Positions 3,635 through 63,442 of a DNA stretch of 64,000 bases are shown one piece after another. The stretch is from positions 34,172-98,171 of the forward strand of contig NZ_JASGEF010000047.1 in the NCBI RefSeq assembly GCF_047606665.1, in the 5' to 3' direction. Origin of the DNA: Micropruina sp. (GTDB lineage: Bacteria > Actinomycetota > Actinomycetes > Propionibacteriales > Propionibacteriaceae). Each line of letters opens with the position of its first letter. Position 1 is the first letter of the stretch. Under the pieces are notes generated by a model. The model worked only from the letters and a program-made list of their open reading frames with translations, searched no databases and was not told where the DNA came from. A program made the position numbers and the translations under genes.

Positions 3635-4097
3635 TTCGACCGCCGACCGATTGGACGCCCTGCAGCAGATGATCGAGCAGGGCAAAGCGGTGCCGATGTC
3701 GGCGTCCTGCATCATCAACCGCACCGACGCGTTGGCGTTGGTCGCCGCCGCCCGATCGGTGCTCGCCGACGAACTGGACGCCGTCCGCGAGGCCGCCGAA
3801 GCCAACCCGTCCGTGCTGGAGCGAGCGAAGCAGGAGGCCGCCGAGGTCGTCCGGAACGCCCAGGAAGAGGCCGCACGGCTGGTGGAGGCCACCGAGGTGG
3901 TGCAAGCCGCCCAGCTCCGTGCCGAAGAGGTCGAGCGGCACGCCGCCGCCGAGGCGGACGCCCTGCGCAAAGAGGCCGACGTCTACGTGGACGGCCGGAT
4001 CGCCGCGATGGAGGCCGGCCTGCAGAAGACCCTCAGCCAGATCCAGACCATGCGCGCCCGGCTCGCCTCCCGCTCTGACCTGGACGCCGGCGAGTAA
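3627..4097 (+). CDS. Conserved Ala/Glu-rich coiled-coil protein of unknown function
   Basis: 156-aa ORF whose ATG overlaps the coaD end. Composition is strongly helical and charged (EEAARLVEATEVVQAAQLRAEEVERHAAAEADALRKEA). Its position between coaD and yceD is typical for actinobacteria; this is from memory. Confidence 0.6.
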   Translation: MADSTADRLDALQQMIEQGKAVPMSASCIINRTDALALVAAARSVLADELDAVREAAEANPSVLERAKQEAAEVVRNAQEEAARLVEATEVVQAAQLRAEEVERHAAAEADALRKEADVYVDGRIAAMEAGLQKTLSQIQTMRARLASRSDLDAGE

Positions 4098-4217
4098 GCC
4101 CCCCGTCGTCCAGCCCCTCCCGTCCGCCCTCCCGAACCAATCGCTCGGGGAGCGCGGGGGTGGGGAAAGGCTCGATTGGCGCCGCGCAAGCCCGCCAGGT
4201 AAGGTTGCTCCTCGGTC

Positions 4218-4802
4218 ATGACCATGTCACATCGCCATCTGAATCCCCGCTCCGGGCTCGTCATCGATACCCACGAGCTGGGCCGACGAGTCGGCGCCAT
4301 GAAGGAGATCCAACGGGTCGCCGAGGCTCCGGACGGCGTGGGCACGGACGTGATCGGGGTACCACCCGGATCCCCCGTCGATCTCGAGATTCGTCTCGAA
4401 TCGGTGGTGGAGGGGGTGCTGGTCACCGGAGCCGCCGAGGTTACGTTGACGGGGCAGTGCGGACGCTGCCTGGAACCGATCTCCTTCGATGAAGAGATCG
4501 ACCTCCAGGAGTTGTACCTCTACCCCGACAAGGAGCCTGACGACGACGAGGCCAGCCGTCTCGAGGACGATCTGCTCGACCTCGAGCCTCTGCTGCGAGA
4601 CATGGTGGTGCTCGACCTGCCGTACACGCCACTGTGCCGGCCGGACTGCGCAGGCTTGTGTCCCGACTGTGGGGCCAACCTGAACGCCGATCCCGACCAC
4701 GCACACGACGACCGGATCGACCCGCGCTGGGCCGGCCTGTCGGGCTGGGCGGCGAAACCTGACGACGAAGATGAGGCCTCTATGGCCGGAAGCAAGGAGT
4801 GA
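4218..4802 (+). CDS. YceD/DUF177 family ribosome-maturation-associated protein
   Basis: [20 protein letters not shown] ... [24 protein letters not shown] (Cys-rich DUF177 signature). It lies directly upstream of rpmF, and its last codons supply the AAGGAG ribosome-binding site for rpmF. Confidence 0.85.
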
Positions 4803-46088: not shown

Positions 46089-47262
<1,174 letters not shown>

Positions 47263-47268
47263 AATGGT

Positions 47269-49425
47269 TCACAGCGCGCAGCTGACGCAGCCCTCGACCT
47301 CGGTGCCCTCCAGGGCGAGCTGCCGCAGCCGGATGTAGTACAGCGTCTTGATGCCCTTCTTCCAGGCGTAGATCTGGGCCCGGTTGAGGTCGCGGGTGGT
47401 GACGTTGTCGGGGAAGAACAGGGTCAGCGACAGGCCCTGATCCACATGCTTGGTCGCCTCGGCGTAGGTGTCGATGATCGCCTCGGGGCCGATCTCGTAC
47501 GCGTCCCGGTAATACTCCAGGTTGTCGTTGGTCAGGTACGGCGCCGGGTAGTAGACCCGTCCGATCTTGCCCTCTTTGCGGATCTCGACCTTCGCGACGA
47601 TCGGGTGGATCGAGGACGTCGAATGGTTGATGTAGCTGATCGAACCGGTCGGCGGAATGGCCTGCAGGTTCTGGTTGTACATCCCGTATTCGGCCACCTC
47701 GGCGGCCAGCGCACGCCAGTCGTCCGGGGTGGGCAGTGCGATCCCGGCGTCGCTGAACAGCCCGGCCACCTTCGCGGTGCGCGGCGTCCAGTCGCCCTCG
47801 ATGTAGCGGACGAAGTACTCGCCCGAGGCGTACTTCGAACGCTCGAATCCGTCGAAGGTCTGGCCGCGTTCACGGGCGATCCGGCAGGACGCCGCGATCG
47901 CATGGAAGGTCACCGTGTAGAAGTACATATTGGTGAAGTCCAGGCCCTCGTCCGAGCCGTAGTGGATGGACTCCCGGGCCAGGTAGCCGTGCAGGTTCAT
48001 CGCGCCCAGGCCGATCGCGTGGCTCATCGCGTTGCCGCGTTCGATGCTCGGCGCGCAGGCGATGTTCGACTGGTCCGACACCGCGGTCAGCGCTCGGATC
48101 GCGGTCTCCACCGTGACGCCGAAGTTCGGCGAGTCCATCGCCTTGGCGATGTTCAGCGACCCGAGATTGCAGGAGATGTCCTTTCCGATCTCGGCGAACG
48201 ACAGGTCCTCGTTGTAGCTGGACGCCGTCGAGACCTGCAGGATCTCCGAGCACAGATTGCTCATGGTGATCCGGCCGTCGATCGGGTTGGCCCGGTTCAC
48301 GGTGTCCTCGAAGACGATGTACGGGTAGCCCGATTCGAACTGGATCTCGGCCAGGGTCTGGAAGAATTTGCGGGCGTTCATCTTCGACTTGGTGATCCGG
48401 CGGTCGTCGACCAGTTCCCGGTATTTCTCCGTGATCGAGATCTCGGTGAACGGCACCCCGTAGACCCGCTCGATGTCGTAGGGGCTGAACAGGTACATGT
48501 CCTCGTTGTCGCGGGCCAGTTGGAAGGTGATGTCGGGAATCACCACGCCCAGCGACAGCGTCTTGATCCGGATCTTCTCGTCGGCGTTCTCGCGCTTGGT
48601 GTCCAGGAACCGCATGATGTCGGGATGGTGGGCGTGCAGGTACACCGCACCGGCGCCCTGCCGCGCTCCCAGCTGGTTGGCGTAGGAGAACGAATCCTCC
48701 AGCAGCTTCATCACCGGGATGACACCGGAGGACTGGTTCTTGATCTTCTTGATCGGCGCGCCGGCCTCACGAATGTTGGTCAGTGACAGCGCCACCCCGC
48801 CGCCCCGCTTGGACAGCTGCAGCGAGGAGTTGATCGCCCGGGCGATCGACTCCATATTGTCCTCGACCCGCAGCAGGAAGCACGAGACCAGCTCGCCGCG
48901 CTGCGCCTTGCCGGCGTTCAGGAAGGTCGGCGTGGCCGGCTGGAAACGTCCGGCCATGATCTCGTCGGCCAGGCTCTCGGCCATCCGCCGGTCGCCGGCG
49001 GCCAGGGTGAGCGCCACCATGCAGACCCGGTCCTCGAAGCGCTCCAGGTAGCGCGAACCGTCGAACGTCTTCAACGTGTACGAGGTGTAGTACTTGAACG
49101 CACCCATGAAGGTCGGGAACCGGAACCTCACCGCGTAGGCCCGCCTGAACAGCGACTTCACGAAATCGAAGTCGTAGAGGTCGAGCACTTGCTGCTCGTA
49201 GTAGCCCTGCTCGACCAGGTAGTCGAGCTTCTCCTTCAGCGAATGGAAGAAGACCGTGTTGGTGTTGACGTGCTGCAGGAAGTACTGATGGGCGGCCTTG
49301 CGATCGGCCTCGAACTGGATCTTGCCGTCCACGTCGTACAGATTCAGCAGCGCGTTGAGTGCGTGATAGTCGACCTCGGACGAGACGGCCTCTAGGCCGG
49401 TGTCGGTGAGCACAGTGGTTGCCAT
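47269..49425 (-). CDS. nrdE: Class Ib ribonucleotide reductase alpha subunit
   Basis: [21 protein letters not shown].. (NrdE N-terminus). Catalytic segments ..SNLCSEI.., ..[12 protein letters not shown].. and C-terminal ..CVSCAL. ATG 49425 lies inside ORF ..49509. Confidence 0.95.
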
Positions 49426-49811
49426 AGTGAAATGAGTCCTTCGCGGACGGCCTCGACGTCGTCGGGCGTCCCCATGAGTTCGAACTGGTACAGGTGGGGC
49501 ACGCCGCATTTGCGTGCCACGATGTCGCCGGCGATGCAGTACGCCGCGCCGAAGTTGGTGTTGCCGGCCGCGATCACACCCAGCATCAGTGCTCGGTTGG
49601 CCGGATCGTTGAGGAAGCGGATCACCTGCTTGGGGATCGCCCCTTCGCCGTTGCCGCCCCCGTAGGTGGGCAGGATCAGGACGAAGGGACGGTCGACGCG
49701 CAGGTGCGGATCGCTGGTCCGCAGCGGGATGCGCTCGGCCTCGAAACCGAGCTTGGTCACAAAGCGGTGGGTGTTCTCCGAAACGGAGGAGAAGTACACG
49801 ACGTGCACCAT
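49392..49811 (-). CDS. nrdI: Flavodoxin-like protein NrdI
   Basis: [52 protein letters not shown] is the NrdI signature. Overlaps the nrdE start by 34 nt. Confidence 0.93.
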
Positions 49812-49944: not shown

Positions 49945-50184
49945 TCAGGCCGCCTGGACGCGGGCCGCGGTCGCCTTGATCCGGTCTGGACGGAACCCGG
50001 CCCAATGCTCGTCGTCGGCGAAGACCACCGGGGCCTGCTGGTACCCGAGCTCCATCACCTGGGCGAGCGCCTGCTCGTCGGCCGACAGGTCGACGACATC
50101 GTAGGACAGGCCGGCCCGGTCGAGCGCGCGGTAGGTGGCGGTGCACTGCACGCACGAGGGCTTGCTGTAGACGGTGATCGTCAT
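49945..50184 (-). CDS. nrdH: Glutaredoxin-like protein NrdH
   Basis: [22 protein letters not shown].. (CVQC redox motif) ..WAGFRPD. 79 aa. Confidence 0.93.
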
Positions 50185-50631: not shown

Positions 50632-50815
50632 CCGGACGCTGGCAGGTCTTCGGACTCTCGGGCTCGGATCGTCCGATCCACCTACTGTCCGTCGCTTCCC
50701 AGGCCGTCGGCCCAGTGCTCGAGACGGAGGTCGTTCCCGATGACCGCTGCGGGGCAGTCCCGGATTCTCACCGGGTTCCCTCTTGCCTCTCCGTCGCCGA
50801 GACGGCGGAGAACCA
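50632..50815 (-). promoter_or_regulatory. Cobalamin (B12) riboswitch aptamer
   Basis: The minus strand reads AAGAGGGAACCCGGTGAGAATCCGGGACTGCCCCGCAGCGGTCATCGGGAACGACC...GAGCACTGGGCC..CCTGGGAAGCGACGG...GAGAGTCCGAAGACCTGCCAGCG. It contains the conserved GGGAA-GGTG-AA-CC core, GCACTG, GGGAAG and the B12 box AGTCCGAAGACCTGCC (50641-50656). Confidence 0.85.
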
Positions 50816-50895
50816 GTCGCGGGCCCGACTCTACGACAGCCGGACGCGGCGACACGATTGGTCGGCGTGTCGCGGCGTGGCGGGCGAGCGATCTA

Positions 50896-54988: not shown

Positions 54989-55076
54989 GGTGTCCGAGAG
55001 AGGACTTGAACCTCCACGCCCTGCAAAGGGCACTAGCACCTCAAGCTAGCGCGTCTACCTATTCCGCCACCCGGAC
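54988..55076 (-). tRNA. tRNA-Leu (anticodon GAG)
   Basis: The minus strand reads GTCCGGGTGGCGGAATAGGTAGACGCGCTAGCTTGAGGTGCTAGTGCCCTTTGCAGGGCGTGGAGGTTCAAGTCCTCTCTCGGACACCA. It has a 7-bp acceptor stem (one G-U), anticodon stem CTAGC/GCTAG with loop TTGAGGT, a long variable arm, a T-loop TTCAAGT, and an encoded CCA. Confidence 0.93.
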
Positions 55077-60549: not shown

Positions 60550-60866
60550 GGATTTCCCTTCGGGCGAGACTGCCGCGGGCCAGCTTAGCTGGCCCCGTGA
60601 GAAGCCCGGTGACACTGTTCGGGACAAGGGACGCCGGACGCCGTCCGAAGCCCCGGCCTTCTGCCGCCGATCGCGGAAGACGCCGAGAATGCCGCCGACG
60701 GAATAGCGCGGCTATGGAATGCGCGGCGGGCCGGCGAAGTTGAGGTGCGCAGTGACCGCTGCGTGGAGCAGTGGCCGGCGCCGGGTGGCGTCGGCGAACC
60801 GTGGTGGCGGTCCGGCGATACCCTGGCGTCCGGCCCATGGGGTCGTGCCTACGAGGAGGAATTTCG

Positions 60867-62093
60867 GTGAGAGCCTGGACCGCGCCCGACCTACCCACCC
60901 TGGACGGCAGCGGCGGCCGGCTGCGGGTCCACGACACCGCGCTCGACGAGCTGGTCGACGTCGAACCGGACAACAACGAGGCGCGGTTCTACGTGTGCGG
61001 CATCACCCCGTACGACGCCACCCATCTCGGGCACGCCAACACCTACGTCGCCTACGACCTGATGTACCGGGCCCTCGCGGACTGCGGGCATCGCGTCGTC
61101 TACACCCAGAACGTCACCGACGTGGACGATCCGCTGCTGGAGCGGGCCGAGCAGACCGGGGTCGACTGGGAGGAACTCGCCGAAGACCAGGTGAGTCTCT
61201 TCCGGGACGACATGACCGCGCTGCGGGTGCTGCCGCCGCAGCACTACGTGGGCGCAGTCGAGGCGATCCCGTCGGTGGTCGAGCTGATCGAGTCGCTCCG
61301 GCTGACCGGAGCGATCTACCAGGTGGACGACCCCGACTACCCGGACTGGTACTTCGAGGTGCGCCGCGCCCCCGGTTTCGGGCGGCTCGCCAAGCTGAGC
61401 GACTCCGAGGCGCTGGCGATCTTCGGCGAGCGCGGCGGCGATCCGGAACGACGCGGCAAGAAGGATCCACTGGACTGCCTGGTGTGGCGGATGGCCAGGC
61501 CGGGGGAGCCGTCCTGGGAATCCCGGCTGGGCCGGGGGCGTCCGGGCTGGCACATCGAGTGCACCGCGATCGCCCTGCAGCATCTCGGCGCGGCGTTCGA
61601 CGTCCAGGGTGGCGGTTCCGACCTGGTCTTTCCGCATCACGAGATGTGTGCCGCGGAGGGCGCGATGGCCACCCGCCAGCCGTTCGCGAAGGCGTATGTG
61701 CATTCCGGCATGGTCGGCCTGCACGGCGAGAAGATGAGCAAATCGCGCGGCAACCTGGTGCTGGTCAGCCGGCTTCGGGCGTCCGGCGCCGACCCGATGG
61801 CGATCCGGCTCGGACTGCTCGCCCGGCATTACCGCACCGACTGGGAATGGACGGCCGACTCGCTGCGGGAGGCCCAGCGTCGTCTCGATCGCTGGCGGGA
61901 CGCCGTGGCGCGTCCGTCCGCGCCCCCCGCCGAACCCCTGGTGGCTGCCTTGCGGACGGCGCTCCGCACCGACCTGGATGCCCCCGCGGCCCTCTCGGCG
62001 ATGGACGCCTGGGCGGACGCCCCCGGCAATGACCCGGACGCCGCTGCGTCCGCGGCGCAGGCGATCGACGCCCTGCTCGGCGTCCGGCTCTAG
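60867..62093 (+). CDS. mshC: Cysteine:1D-myo-inosityl 2-amino-2-deoxy-alpha-D-glucopyranoside ligase (mycothiol ligase)
   Basis: ..[81 protein letters not shown] follows the CysRS-paralog pattern matching MshC. GTG 60867 follows GAGGAGGA. Confidence 0.9.
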
Positions 62094-62100
62094 AACGATC

Positions 62101-62311
62101 GGGGACGGTTCTTCGGGAACGATCGGGGAACGATCGGGGACGGTTCTTCGGTGTGCGAGTTTCGCATGTCCCGGGGACGGTTCTTCGGCGTGCGAGATTC
62201 GCACGTTCGGGGGACGGTTCTCAAGGGCCCCGGTGTCCGAAGGAACCGTCCCTGGCGACCGGGAGAACCGTCCCCACGTGTGCGAGATTCGAACGTCGAA
62301 GAACCGTCCCC
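62101..62311. repeat. Second array of the ~36-bp composite repeat family, between convergent mshC and the enolase-superfamily gene
   Basis: Motif A occurs at 62101, 62136, 62173 and 62209. Its reverse complement occurs at 62239, 62263 and 62298. Motif B (GTGCGAG(T/A)TTCG) occurs at 62153, 62190 and 62280, all in one orientation. Confidence 0.85.
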
Positions 62312-62326
62312 GACGTTGAACGGTGT

Positions 62327-63442
62327 TCAGAGGGTGAGGGTGGTGGACTCCACGGTGAACTCCTCGACGTCGTCCAGGTCGACTTCGACACCGATCCCTG
62401 GGCCGGACGGCGCGGTCAGACAGCCGTCGGCGTCCAGCTCGAACGAGGGGCCGATGTCGGCGGCGTAGTACCGGGAGGTCGCGGAGATGTCGCCGGGCAG
62501 GGTGAACCCGGGAAGGGTTGCCAAAGCCAGGTTGGCGGCGCGTCCGACCGCGGTCTCCAGGGTGCCGCCGCAGAACACCGGGACGCCGTTGGCCAGACAG
62601 ACGTCGTGGATCTGCCGGGCGTTTATATACCCGCCGACCCGGCTGGGCTTGATGTTGATCACGTCGGCGGCGCCCATTCGGATCGTCGTCATCGCATCGT
62701 CCAGGGACAGCACCGACTCGTCCAGGCACACCGGGGTGCCGTGTCGCGCGGCCAGCTTGGCGTGCGCCAACAGCTCATGCCGGGCGAACGGCTGCTCGAT
62801 CAGCACCAGTCCGAACCCGTCCAGCCTGCTCAGCAGCGGAATGTCCGCGGCGGTGTAGGCCTGGTTGGCGTCCACCTGCAGCGGCAGATCGTCGCCGAAC
62901 GCCTCCCGGACGGTGTGTACCGGCTCCAGATCCCACCCCGGTTGGATCTTCAGCTTGACCCGCCGGTAGCCGTCCTCCAGATACCCCGCCACCCACGACA
63001 GCAGCGTGTCGATGTCGCCGGGAATGCCGACCGACACCCCGACCCGAATCGGACGCCGGGTCGAGCACAGGAAGTCCACGAACGGCATCCCTCGGCGCCG
63101 CAGCTCGGCGTCCAGCACCGCCGTCTCAAGCAGCCCGCGGGCCAGCGGATTGCCGGGCACCTCGGCGAACGCCGTCCGCAGTGCGCCGGTGGTCATCGGC
63201 TCCCCAGACGCCGACGCCAACAACGGCAGCAGCACCTGCTCGACGGTCGACCGGACGCCGTCGATGTACTCCGGGAAGTAGGTCGGTTCGGGATCGGCGG
63301 CCGACTCGGCCCACCCGGTCACCCCGTCGGGGCCCGTCCAGGACGCCACCAGCACCTGCCGGACGGTCTCCTCGCCCTTGCTGGTGCGGAACGGACGCAC
63401 CAGCGGCATCTCCAGCCGGCGCAATTCGAGGGTGGTGGACAT
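62327..63442 (-). CDS. Enolase-superfamily enzyme, o-succinylbenzoate synthase / N-acylamino acid racemase subgroup
   Basis: MSTTLELRRLEMPLVRPFRTSKGEE.., ..YRRVKLKIQPGWD.., ..LQVDANQAYT.., ..LIEQP.., ..CLDESV.. give the metal-ligand and KxK pattern of the MLE/OSBS subgroup. Confidence 0.85.
   Translation of the reverse strand: MSTTLELRRLEMPLVRPFRTSKGEETVRQVLVASWTGPDGVTGWAESAADPEPTYFPEYIDGVRSTVEQVLLPLLASASGEPMTTGALRTAFAEVPGNPLARGLLETAVLDAELRRRGMPFVDFLCSTRRPIRVGVSVGIPGDIDTLLSWVAGYLEDGYRRVKLKIQPGWDLEPVHTVREAFGDDLPLQVDANQAYTAADIPLLSRLDGFGLVLIEQPFARHELLAHAKLAARHGTPVCLDESVLSLDDAMTTIRMGAADVINIKPSRVGGYINARQIHDVCLANGVPVFCGGTLETAVGRAANLALATLPGFTLPGDISATSRYYAADIGPSFELDADGCLTAPSGPGIGVEVDLDDVEEFTVESTTLTL

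Follow-up and report, generated by a model that had tools for sequence, protein, structure and literature searches.

The window analysed here is a stretch of 64,000 nucleotides of DNA from a Micropruina sp. (contig NZ_JASGEF010000047.1), in which the 233-base spacer between the genes mshC and menC (62094-62326) is a cluster of short repeats, made up of four forward and then three reverse copies of the core GGGGACGGTTCT. In a TIRtron, inverted repeats lie on either side of a gene for a Y1/HUH tyrosine transposase of the TIRYT type, and the array is probably an 'empty TIRtron': a non-autonomous element, similar to a REP doublet forming hairpin (REPIN, a REP being a repetitive extragenic palindromic sequence) or to a miniature inverted-repeat transposable element (MITE), which consists of two multi-copy ends without a transposase gene and which is either a relic or a parasite. 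As such it is a known kind of selfish repeat, not a new regulatory device.

The array fills its spacer exactly, the stop codon of mshC ending at 62093 and that of the convergent menC occupying 62327-62329. Its features are as follows.

62094-62326, no strand assigned: whole array of forward units, centre and reverse units, forming one long compound hairpin as a single strand
62101-62112, plus strand: forward core 1, GGGGACGGTTCT
62115-62140, plus strand: 11-nt tandem repeat GGGAACGATCG between forward cores 1 and 2
62136-62147, plus strand: forward core 2
62153-62167, no strand assigned: palindrome B copy 1, GTGCGAGTTTCGCAT, an inter-core hairpin that matches both strands
62173-62184, plus strand: forward core 3
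62190-62204, no strand assigned: palindrome B copy 2, GTGCGAGATTCGCAC, hairpin z = -3.9
62210-62221, plus strand: forward core 4, the innermost, with TCA after the core instead of TTC
62242-62253, minus strand: reverse core 1, degenerate, GGAACCGTCCCT on the plus strand
62264-62275, minus strand: reverse core 2, AGAACCGTCCCC on the plus strand
62280-62294, no strand assigned: palindrome B copy 3, GTGCGAGATTCGAAC
62300-62311, minus strand: reverse core 3, AGAACCGTCCCC on the plus strand
47082-47262, no strand assigned: second array, between nrdE and nrdF, with forward cores at 47082, 47116 and 47152 and reverse cores at 47183, 47217 and 47251

The forward cores of the mshC-menC array follow one another at 35, 37 and 37 nt, and Tandem Repeats Finder reports a 37-nt period for 62094-62326 and periods of 34-37 nt overall. 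The B motif (GTGCGAgatTCGCAC) that separates some of them is a near-perfect palindrome, GTGCGA-gat-TCGCAC, with a 6-bp stem and a 3-nt loop, while the GGGAACGATCG repeat looks like a partial duplication of a unit, and GAACGATC is also found as the upstream flank of cores in L049, a locus to which we return below. When a 14-mer with up to two mismatches is counted, the 64 kb hold 12 matches against 0.95 expected, a number reached in 0 of 100 shuffles, and all of these matches lie within 62094-62326 or 47082-47262; the exact 10-mer likewise has 12 matches in the window, every one inside either array. This clustering is not chance. The second array is built like the first, with three forward and then three reverse cores.

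Much of this anatomy had been recognised in a first-pass annotation made from the sequence alone, which placed the forward and reverse cores (its motif A) and the B motifs (62153, 62190, 62280) essentially correctly, four core positions being refined here to 62210, 62242, 62264 and 62300, and which described the same architecture at 47081-47262 and an array occupying the entire intergenic space. It was also right that this is not a CRISPR array, as both core orientations are present, B is repeated between cores and a period of 35-37 nt goes with a core of only 12 nt. The orientation that it read into B, unchanged where A is inverted, is an artefact: as a palindrome, B matches both strands and its orientation is uninformative.

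The core has a wide distribution. A scan for pairs of cores at a distance of 18-30 nt, with each species represented by one genome, found at least 119 loci, and all figures that follow from the 123 array-selected loci in total hold among the matches listed. Many of the loci are from Bacillota (GC content 24-60%) and others from Micropruina and other Actinomycetota (GC about 69%), with further ones in Prevotella and Muribaculaceae and in single metagenome-assembled genomes (MAGs) labelled Treponema, Desulfovibrio, Ignavibacteria and Patescibacteria. Across these lineages, in genomes of 24% to 72% GC, the 12-mer is identical and the inter-core sequence is lineage-specific, GGGGACAG variants being present in some loci. 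Arrays with the same core are also seen on four IMG/VR contigs classed as viral (L001-L004), with no TIRYT within the stretch fetched; these could represent a route of horizontal spread or misclassified prophage-adjacent DNA.

The arrangement of the cores is equally constrained. Among multi-core clusters in the 123 loci and the window, 74 are forward-then-reverse and none is reverse-then-forward, the others having one orientation (97) or being mixed (2). This asymmetry is real because both arrangements read the same on either strand; the GGGG end of the cores always faces outward, and the 74:0 ratio is the one expected of transposon ends, because these point outward. The arrays are intergenic and, by crude gene calls, biased toward gene 3' ends: 19 lie between convergent and 38 between tandem genes, against 7 between divergent ones (6, 4 and 0, respectively, in Actinomycetota). 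The dispersed intergenic family with a fixed grammar that had been postulated from two loci is hence borne out. Searches of the literature with the core and its sub-strings gave only unrelated primer matches, and the supplements of PMC3733652 and PMC6006769 hold no sequence matching the core.

The evidence that links the core to transposition comes from loci such as L009, L060 and L120, where the forward and reverse blocks are separated by 0.8-3.7 kb and enclose a protein of about 250 aa. This protein matches PF01797 (Y1_Tnp) with E = 1e-13 to 1e-17, scores 70-80 bits against NF047646 (REP_Tyr_transpos, REP-associated tyrosine transposase), just under the 80-bit cut-off, and has a weak helix-turn-helix (HTH) match at its C-terminus. 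A Y1 gene is present in 14 of the 123 array-selected loci, at full length in nine and mostly within about 100 bp of cores, and is found in either orientation relative to the core blocks; the gene lies between forward and reverse cores in L246, L247, L248, L129, L125, L009, L060, L120, L107 and others. Its invariant residues are NHxH (NHVH), GHxFQxR and Y...NP. Quentin et al. 2018 (PMC6006769) describe NHVH, FQ and Y---NP motifs and an HTH tail for TnpA-Y1 subclass 2.1, all of them matched by the bracketed protein, and equate this subclass with TIRYT and with group 1 of the REP-associated tyrosine transposases (RAYTs) of Bertels et al. 2017 (PMC5581495). From its residues, length and HTH tail, the bracketed gene is thus classified as TIRYT, TnpA-Y1 subclass 2.1 or RAYT group 1 in type.

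The association also holds in the reciprocal direction, where loci were selected by protein: the core is in the flank of every homologue that scores at least 230 bits against a hidden Markov model of the clade, and beside none of about 90 lower-scoring high-GC Y1 genes. The TIRYTs of Micropruina and Desulforamulus are only 36% identical and have an identical 12-mer. An AlphaFold model of the Micropruina protein (mean pLDDT 85.6) has as its best match in the PDB the complex of E. coli TnpA-REP with a REP hairpin, 4ER8 (E = 1e-8, TM-score 0.75 on the target), followed by the ISDra2, IS200 and IS608 transposases (TnpA), and predicts a separate helical, HTH-like domain for residues 190-251. A sequence profile also reaches 4ER8 (E = 4e-5), and phmmer of the Micropruina TIRYT against the PDB gave no match.

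Some loci in these searches depart from the simple pattern. Blocks in L023 (2152-3266) bracket a 322-aa unannotated open reading frame, those in L011 (1702-2378, Bacillota) bracket genes other than, or besides, a transposase, and between those in L060 (2459-6256) lie an alcohol-dehydrogenase-like gene and a truncated second TIRYT; such Bacillota blocks around other genes may be cargo-carrying composites or neighbouring solo ends. In a tblastn search of plasmids, an Acetoanaerobium match has single flanking cores; a Collinsella homologue (31% identity) was rejected as a member of the clade, having no core in its flanks and belonging to a different one.

Full elements are also found in Micropruina. 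No Y1 gene was present in the Actinomycetota loci first fetched, and a first homologue profile search returned Bacillota-like proteins only, with no Actinomycetota members. Metagenomes were scanned with the GHxFQxRF motif in GC-rich codons, and the best-scoring match, L129 (68% GC), encodes a 256-aa TIRYT, with GGGGACGGTTCC in one flank and GGAACCGTCCCC in the other. Among the homologues of this protein are some named 'transposase' from Micropruina sp., Propionicimonas sp. and Propionibacteriaceae bacterium. In the Micropruina MAGs L246, L247 and L248, the gene is preceded by four, four and three forward cores and followed by two, three and three reverse cores, respectively, and its product has the PF01797 match and the HTH-like C-terminus. 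Dispersed arrays occur in the same assemblies, JASGHC (L036), JASGDE (L070, L117) and JASGEN (L012, L043, L085), and in JASGDE the alternating 20-nt and 34-35-nt units are common to the gene flanks and the dispersed arrays. One TIRYT-carrying Micropruina MAG has a MenC 88% identical to that of the window, and from such relatives we infer that the strain from which the window comes still encodes its cognate TIRYT.

Two further features of these carriers were observed. The TIRtrons of L246 and L247 are at one chromosomal site (leuCD - iclR / TIRtron / ykuD), where the TIRYTs (4001-4783 and 4001-4762, respectively) are 63% identical and IclR, LeuC and LeuD are 99.6%, 93% and 90% identical, a divergence that suggests cassette replacement or very fast evolution at a fixed site. 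Moreover, a perfect DnaA-box-like TTATCCACA lies within a conserved GTTATCCACAGAT, 72-77 nt upstream of the TIRYT start, in four of four Propionibacteriales-type TIRtrons (L246 at about 3924-3932, L247 at about 3927-3935, L248 at about 122-130 and L129 at about 1284-1292 on the minus strand). A conserved CTGCTTAGGCTC that may be a -10 element comes after it; Bacillota TIRtrons lack the box. The C-terminus of TIRYTs has been reported to be DnaA-C-like (PMC6006769).

Comparison of orthologous sites reveals how readily the arrays change. The convergent menC/mshC pair is kept in five relatives, with spacers that differ from that of the window.

Window: 233 bp, four forward and three reverse cores
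L249: 151 bp, two forward and two reverse cores with different flanks
L250: 243 bp, two forward cores, unrelated sequence, then two forward and two reverse cores
L251 (M. sonneratiae): 72 bp, no core
L252: 130 bp, no core
L253: 24 bp, no core

At the other site, the nrdE-nrdF spacer of L049 has three forward and five reverse cores and an inter-core sequence unrelated to that of the window, between genes 86-90% identical to the window's. Together, the spacer polymorphism and the replaced inter-core sequence of L049 indicate that arrays have been gained, lost and rebuilt over short evolutionary scales with the core preserved. A target-site duplication at mshC-menC is not definable because the empty sites are too diverged. 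Another palindrome, gtcatcccggc...gccgggatgac, is present in the spacers of L250 (about 2760-2800) and L252 (about 3640-3680); the window has no copy of it, and it may represent a further repeat family of Micropruina.

As RNA, 62094-62326 folds far better than shuffled sequences on the two strands (z = -7.9 and -7.6), as does the whole array as DNA (z = -8.5), and the minimum-free-energy fold pairs forward with reverse cores; only this pairing across the whole array and palindrome B (z = -3.9) are significantly stable in the window. A perfect stem of 5 bp or more arises from the immediate flanks of the core in 37% of 477 distinct units, compared with 4% when flanks are paired across units, and first, internal and last units behave alike. 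In many lineages, then, the core appears to sit in the loop of a lineage-specific hairpin. As the halves of B are also the flanks of adjacent cores, the same sequence can be read either as 'core plus hairpin B' or as 'core in loop'.

How such arrays might arise can be proposed from these observations. The unit consists of the invariant 12-nt core and lineage-specific flanks, palindrome B being the flank here, with the forward units as the left end and the reverse units as the right end of the element, GGGG outward, able to form a REPIN-like long hairpin when single-stranded. The core would be recognised by the TIRYT of the genome, either by the HUH domain, reading single strands or hairpins of DNA, or by the C-terminal HTH, reading the duplex, and the enzyme would cut and rejoin DNA at or near the core, as the TnpA of IS200/IS605 and E. 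coli TnpA-REP do at hairpins. This cutting and rejoining may seed forward-reverse pairs in intergenic DNA, whose copy number would then drift through local duplication and deletion of units, with existing arrays favoured for additional turnover. If transcripts are affected at all, for instance by a 3' hairpin with a stabilising or pausing action on mRNA, this would be secondary. By analogy with the homologous TnpA-REP and IS200/IS605 enzymes, a TIRYT would bind and cleave the arrays and mobilise them in trans, and the earlier suggestion of a protein-recognition array is very probably right.

Several observations weigh against an empty TIRtron. The window itself holds no TIRYT or other Y1 gene, and neither a transposition event nor a target-site signature nor a cleavage site came to light. 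The ends are inverted, as opposed to the same-strand hairpins of IS200/IS605, and the mechanism of the latter is not simply transferable. The core begins GGGGACGG and has G at position 7, not the A of the published GGGGWSAS, and by its sequence is a sister motif of that consensus instead of an example of it, while Quentin et al. (PMC6006769) report no REP-like sequences beside subclass 2.1 genes. Finally, the 'core in loop' hairpin is not significantly stable in the window (z = -1.5), and about 63% of units have no perfect flanking stem of at least 5 bp.

Of the other explanations, the one that fares best accepts the transposase and gives the arrays another role. Here, GGGGACGGTTCT would be the recognition or nick site, often in a hairpin loop, of one pan-bacterial Y1/HUH clade, and the arrays would be landing pads driving repeated replacement of cassettes and arrays at fixed sites, as parts of a distinct, partly domesticated and site-renewing system and not of a decaying transposon. 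It would explain why a 63%-identical TIRYT lies amid neighbours of 90-99.6% identity and why inter-core sequence is unrelated at orthologous spacers; the Propionibacteriales system might, in addition, be coupled, via the conserved TTATCCACA box in the promoter region, with DnaA or with a DnaA-like HTH of its own. We regard this as the less likely account, though one to be kept in mind.

It is doubtful that the array works primarily at the RNA level and is kept by selection because it acts on the convergent mshC and menC transcripts as an attenuator, as a 3'-end stabiliser or as a terminator in both directions. The strong folding on both strands and the bias of arrays to gene 3' ends would suit such a function, and classical REPs do stabilise upstream mRNA (PMC3733652). 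The arrays may have a secondary effect on mRNA 3' ends. Nevertheless, there are no terminator-like sites (hairpin plus T-run) in 61800-62600, an Rfam scan of the whole window at gathering scores returned no family matching the array, and a scan of the array with E up to 1 gave only mir-2232 and ncS037, far under their cut-offs. The sister array lies between nrdE and nrdF, genes that need co-expression, and three Micropruina relatives have no array in the mshC-menC spacer, which in one of them is only 24 bp. Furthermore, at orthologous sites the inter-core sequence is replaced wholesale and the core alone is kept, and this core is unchanged over 24% to 72% GC and tied to a transposase gene. The bidirectional terminator or insulator put forward in the first-pass annotation is not supported, in view of the lack of terminator-like sites and of a matching RNA family, the array inside an operon and the array-free relatives.

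A platform for a host chromosomal protein unrelated to transposition, be it nucleoid-associated or an insulator, partition or replication factor, seems more improbable still. IHF, gyrase and Pol I are bound by classical REPs and bacterial interspersed mosaic elements (BIMEs), an asymmetric 12-mer iterated at 20-37-nt spacing is typical of cooperative protein binding, and the DnaA-box-like TTATCCACA is found beside arrays in the Micropruina TIRtrons. Against this, the Y1 transposase gene alone is found with the arrays time and again in different phyla, the outward-facing forward-then-reverse order is that of element ends and the array site is polymorphic among close relatives; nor is any host factor of such specificity known to be conserved from Patescibacteria to Actinomycetota.

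There is very little to recommend an origin of the array, as a MITE, from a transposon of the DDE type that has several transposase-binding sites at each end (Tn7-, Mu- or IS21-like), with a coincidental Y1 link. Ends of the Tn7, Mu and Tn3 type have direct repeats on the left and inverted copies on the right, which the direct repeats, inverted copies and outer GGGG of the array do resemble. However, the blocks of nine full elements, which come from Bacillota, a single Prevotella (Bacteroidota) and Micropruina, have no gene between them other than that of the Y1 protein, often within 100 bp of the cores, and no DDE transposase emerged beside the arrays, although no systematic scan was aimed at one. 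Tandem-repeat noise of the variable-number type, or chance low complexity of a high-GC genome, would fit the variable core number between relatives and the 34-37-nt periods and is refuted by the 12 matches against 0.95 expected, by an identical 12-mer in at least 119 loci from several phyla and four viral contigs, and by the presence of both orientations in a fixed order. CsrA-type sponge RNA, type III toxin-antitoxin repeats and tRNA-like T-loop mimicry were each rejected on the grounds of both orientations, presence in Actinomycetota and the transposase link, and CGTC-tagged REPs by their definition (8-9-bp stem, 4-5-nt loop and CCA tail).

An empty TIRtron, the reading we prefer, has its closest relatives in the TIRtrons of Di Nocera et al. 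2013 (PMC3733652). There, TIRYT genes lie between inverted repeats with the common motif GGGGWSAS, and some species have scattered copies of the terminal inverted repeat (TIR) as singles, dimers or clusters. The family described here and the published TIRtrons have in common a RAYT-like Y1/HUH protein of about 240-260 aa, seen here in relatives such as the three Micropruina MAGs, with the motifs NHVH, FQ and Y---NP and an HTH at the C-terminus, inverted repeats that start with GGGG, flank the gene and have the same sequence as the dispersed copies (here two arrays in 64 kb and several loci per Micropruina MAG, the totals being lower bounds), and a wide taxonomic spread that includes Clostridia. 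The differences are that the core departs from GGGGWSAS at position 7 and, at 12 nt, is invariant across phyla, that the ends are a tandem series of two to nine cores where theirs are a single TIR, and that many units have the core between complementary lineage-specific flanks.

Several other families resemble the arrays in part. Like the REPs, BIMEs and REPINs that accompany RAYTs in E. coli and Pseudomonas, they are extragenic and biased to 3' ends and convergent pairs, combine a short conserved tag with a hairpin, form long hairpins from inverted pairs and mosaic clusters (BIMEs), and bracket a Y1 gene (REPtron) whose closest solved fold is that of TnpA-REP, 4ER8. The first-pass annotation had stated that the grammar does not fit a simple hairpin-forming REP; the arrays are in fact the REP/REPIN analogue of a RAYT-like Y1 clade and bracket its gene in Bacillota, Bacteroidota and Micropruina. 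The analogy has limits, in that the 5' GT[AG]G of classical REPs is lacking (by direct reading, neither GTAG nor CTAC occurs in 62094-62326), the 12-mer is common across phyla whereas REPs are species-specific, BIMEs alternate in orientation whereas here the forward units all come before the reverse ones, and the protein has an extra HTH domain and is of another subclass. With IS200/IS605 elements (IS608, ISDra2) they share a Y1/HUH catalytic fold, small end hairpins and the expected single-strand chemistry, but IS200/IS605 ends are not inverted repeats, have both hairpins on one strand and are without iterated cores, and the elements, which are multi-copy, autonomous and often accompanied by tnpB, lack an HTH tail. 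Lastly, the MITEs RUP, NEMIS/Correia, Nezha and ERIC are likewise gene-less end pairs of 100-300 bp, intergenic, strongly folding and present or absent between relatives, but those known come from DDE-type insertion sequences with a single TIR per end, unlike the Y1 partner and iterated ends seen here.

What is already known is therefore the combination of a RAYT-like Y1 gene with flanking and dispersed inverted repeats, as in the TIRtron/TIRYT system. New with respect to the literature searched are the invariant 12-nt core that crosses phyla, the ends of iterated cores, the complementary lineage-specific flanks and the expansion in Micropruina; no mention of an Actinomycetota (Micropruina) TIRtron was found in the TIRtron/TIRYT literature searched. 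TIRYT/subclass 2.1, the largest RAYT-like group and one without an assigned function, gains a concrete candidate DNA partner, whose core stays constant while the protein diverges to 36% identity and over genome GC contents of 24% to 72%. Micropruina is abundant in the communities of wastewater treatment, and a conspicuous class of its intergenic repeats is thereby explained; annotators are warned that such arrays are mobile-element ends, neither CRISPRs nor sites of regulation. Should the arrays prove to be hot spots of turnover, they would provide a natural system for studying how non-autonomous repeats persist.

The genes around the two arrays and the other features of their neighbourhood are as follows.

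60771-62093, plus strand: mshC, a Cys-tRNA-synthetase-like ligase with a tRNA-synt_1e domain, stop codon abutting the array
62327-63442, minus strand: menC, o-succinylbenzoate synthase of the enolase superfamily with an MR_MLE_C domain, convergent with mshC, stop codon abutting the array
46089-47063, minus strand: nrdF
47269-49509, minus strand: nrdE
49392-49811, minus strand: nrdI
49945-50184, minus strand: nrdH
50639-50816, minus strand: cobalamin riboswitch (RF00174, 90 bits) ahead of nrdHIEF

The longest open reading frame of mshC has 440 aa from a GTG start, about 30 aa beyond its orthologues; as these are 408-423 aa long, the true start is probably downstream of 60771. The gene on the other side had been described as an enolase-family gene, which is correct at the level of the superfamily, its specific identity being MenC; the best homologues of the protein are 88-89% identical and named Micropruina sp., and a look-up of the exact MenC sequence found no record of it. 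The second array is inside the nrdHIEF operon, which encodes a class Ib ribonucleotide reductase, in the nrdE-nrdF spacer. Between the two arrays, a tRNA gene is found at 54991-55076 on the minus strand (Rfam RF00005, 51.5 bits).

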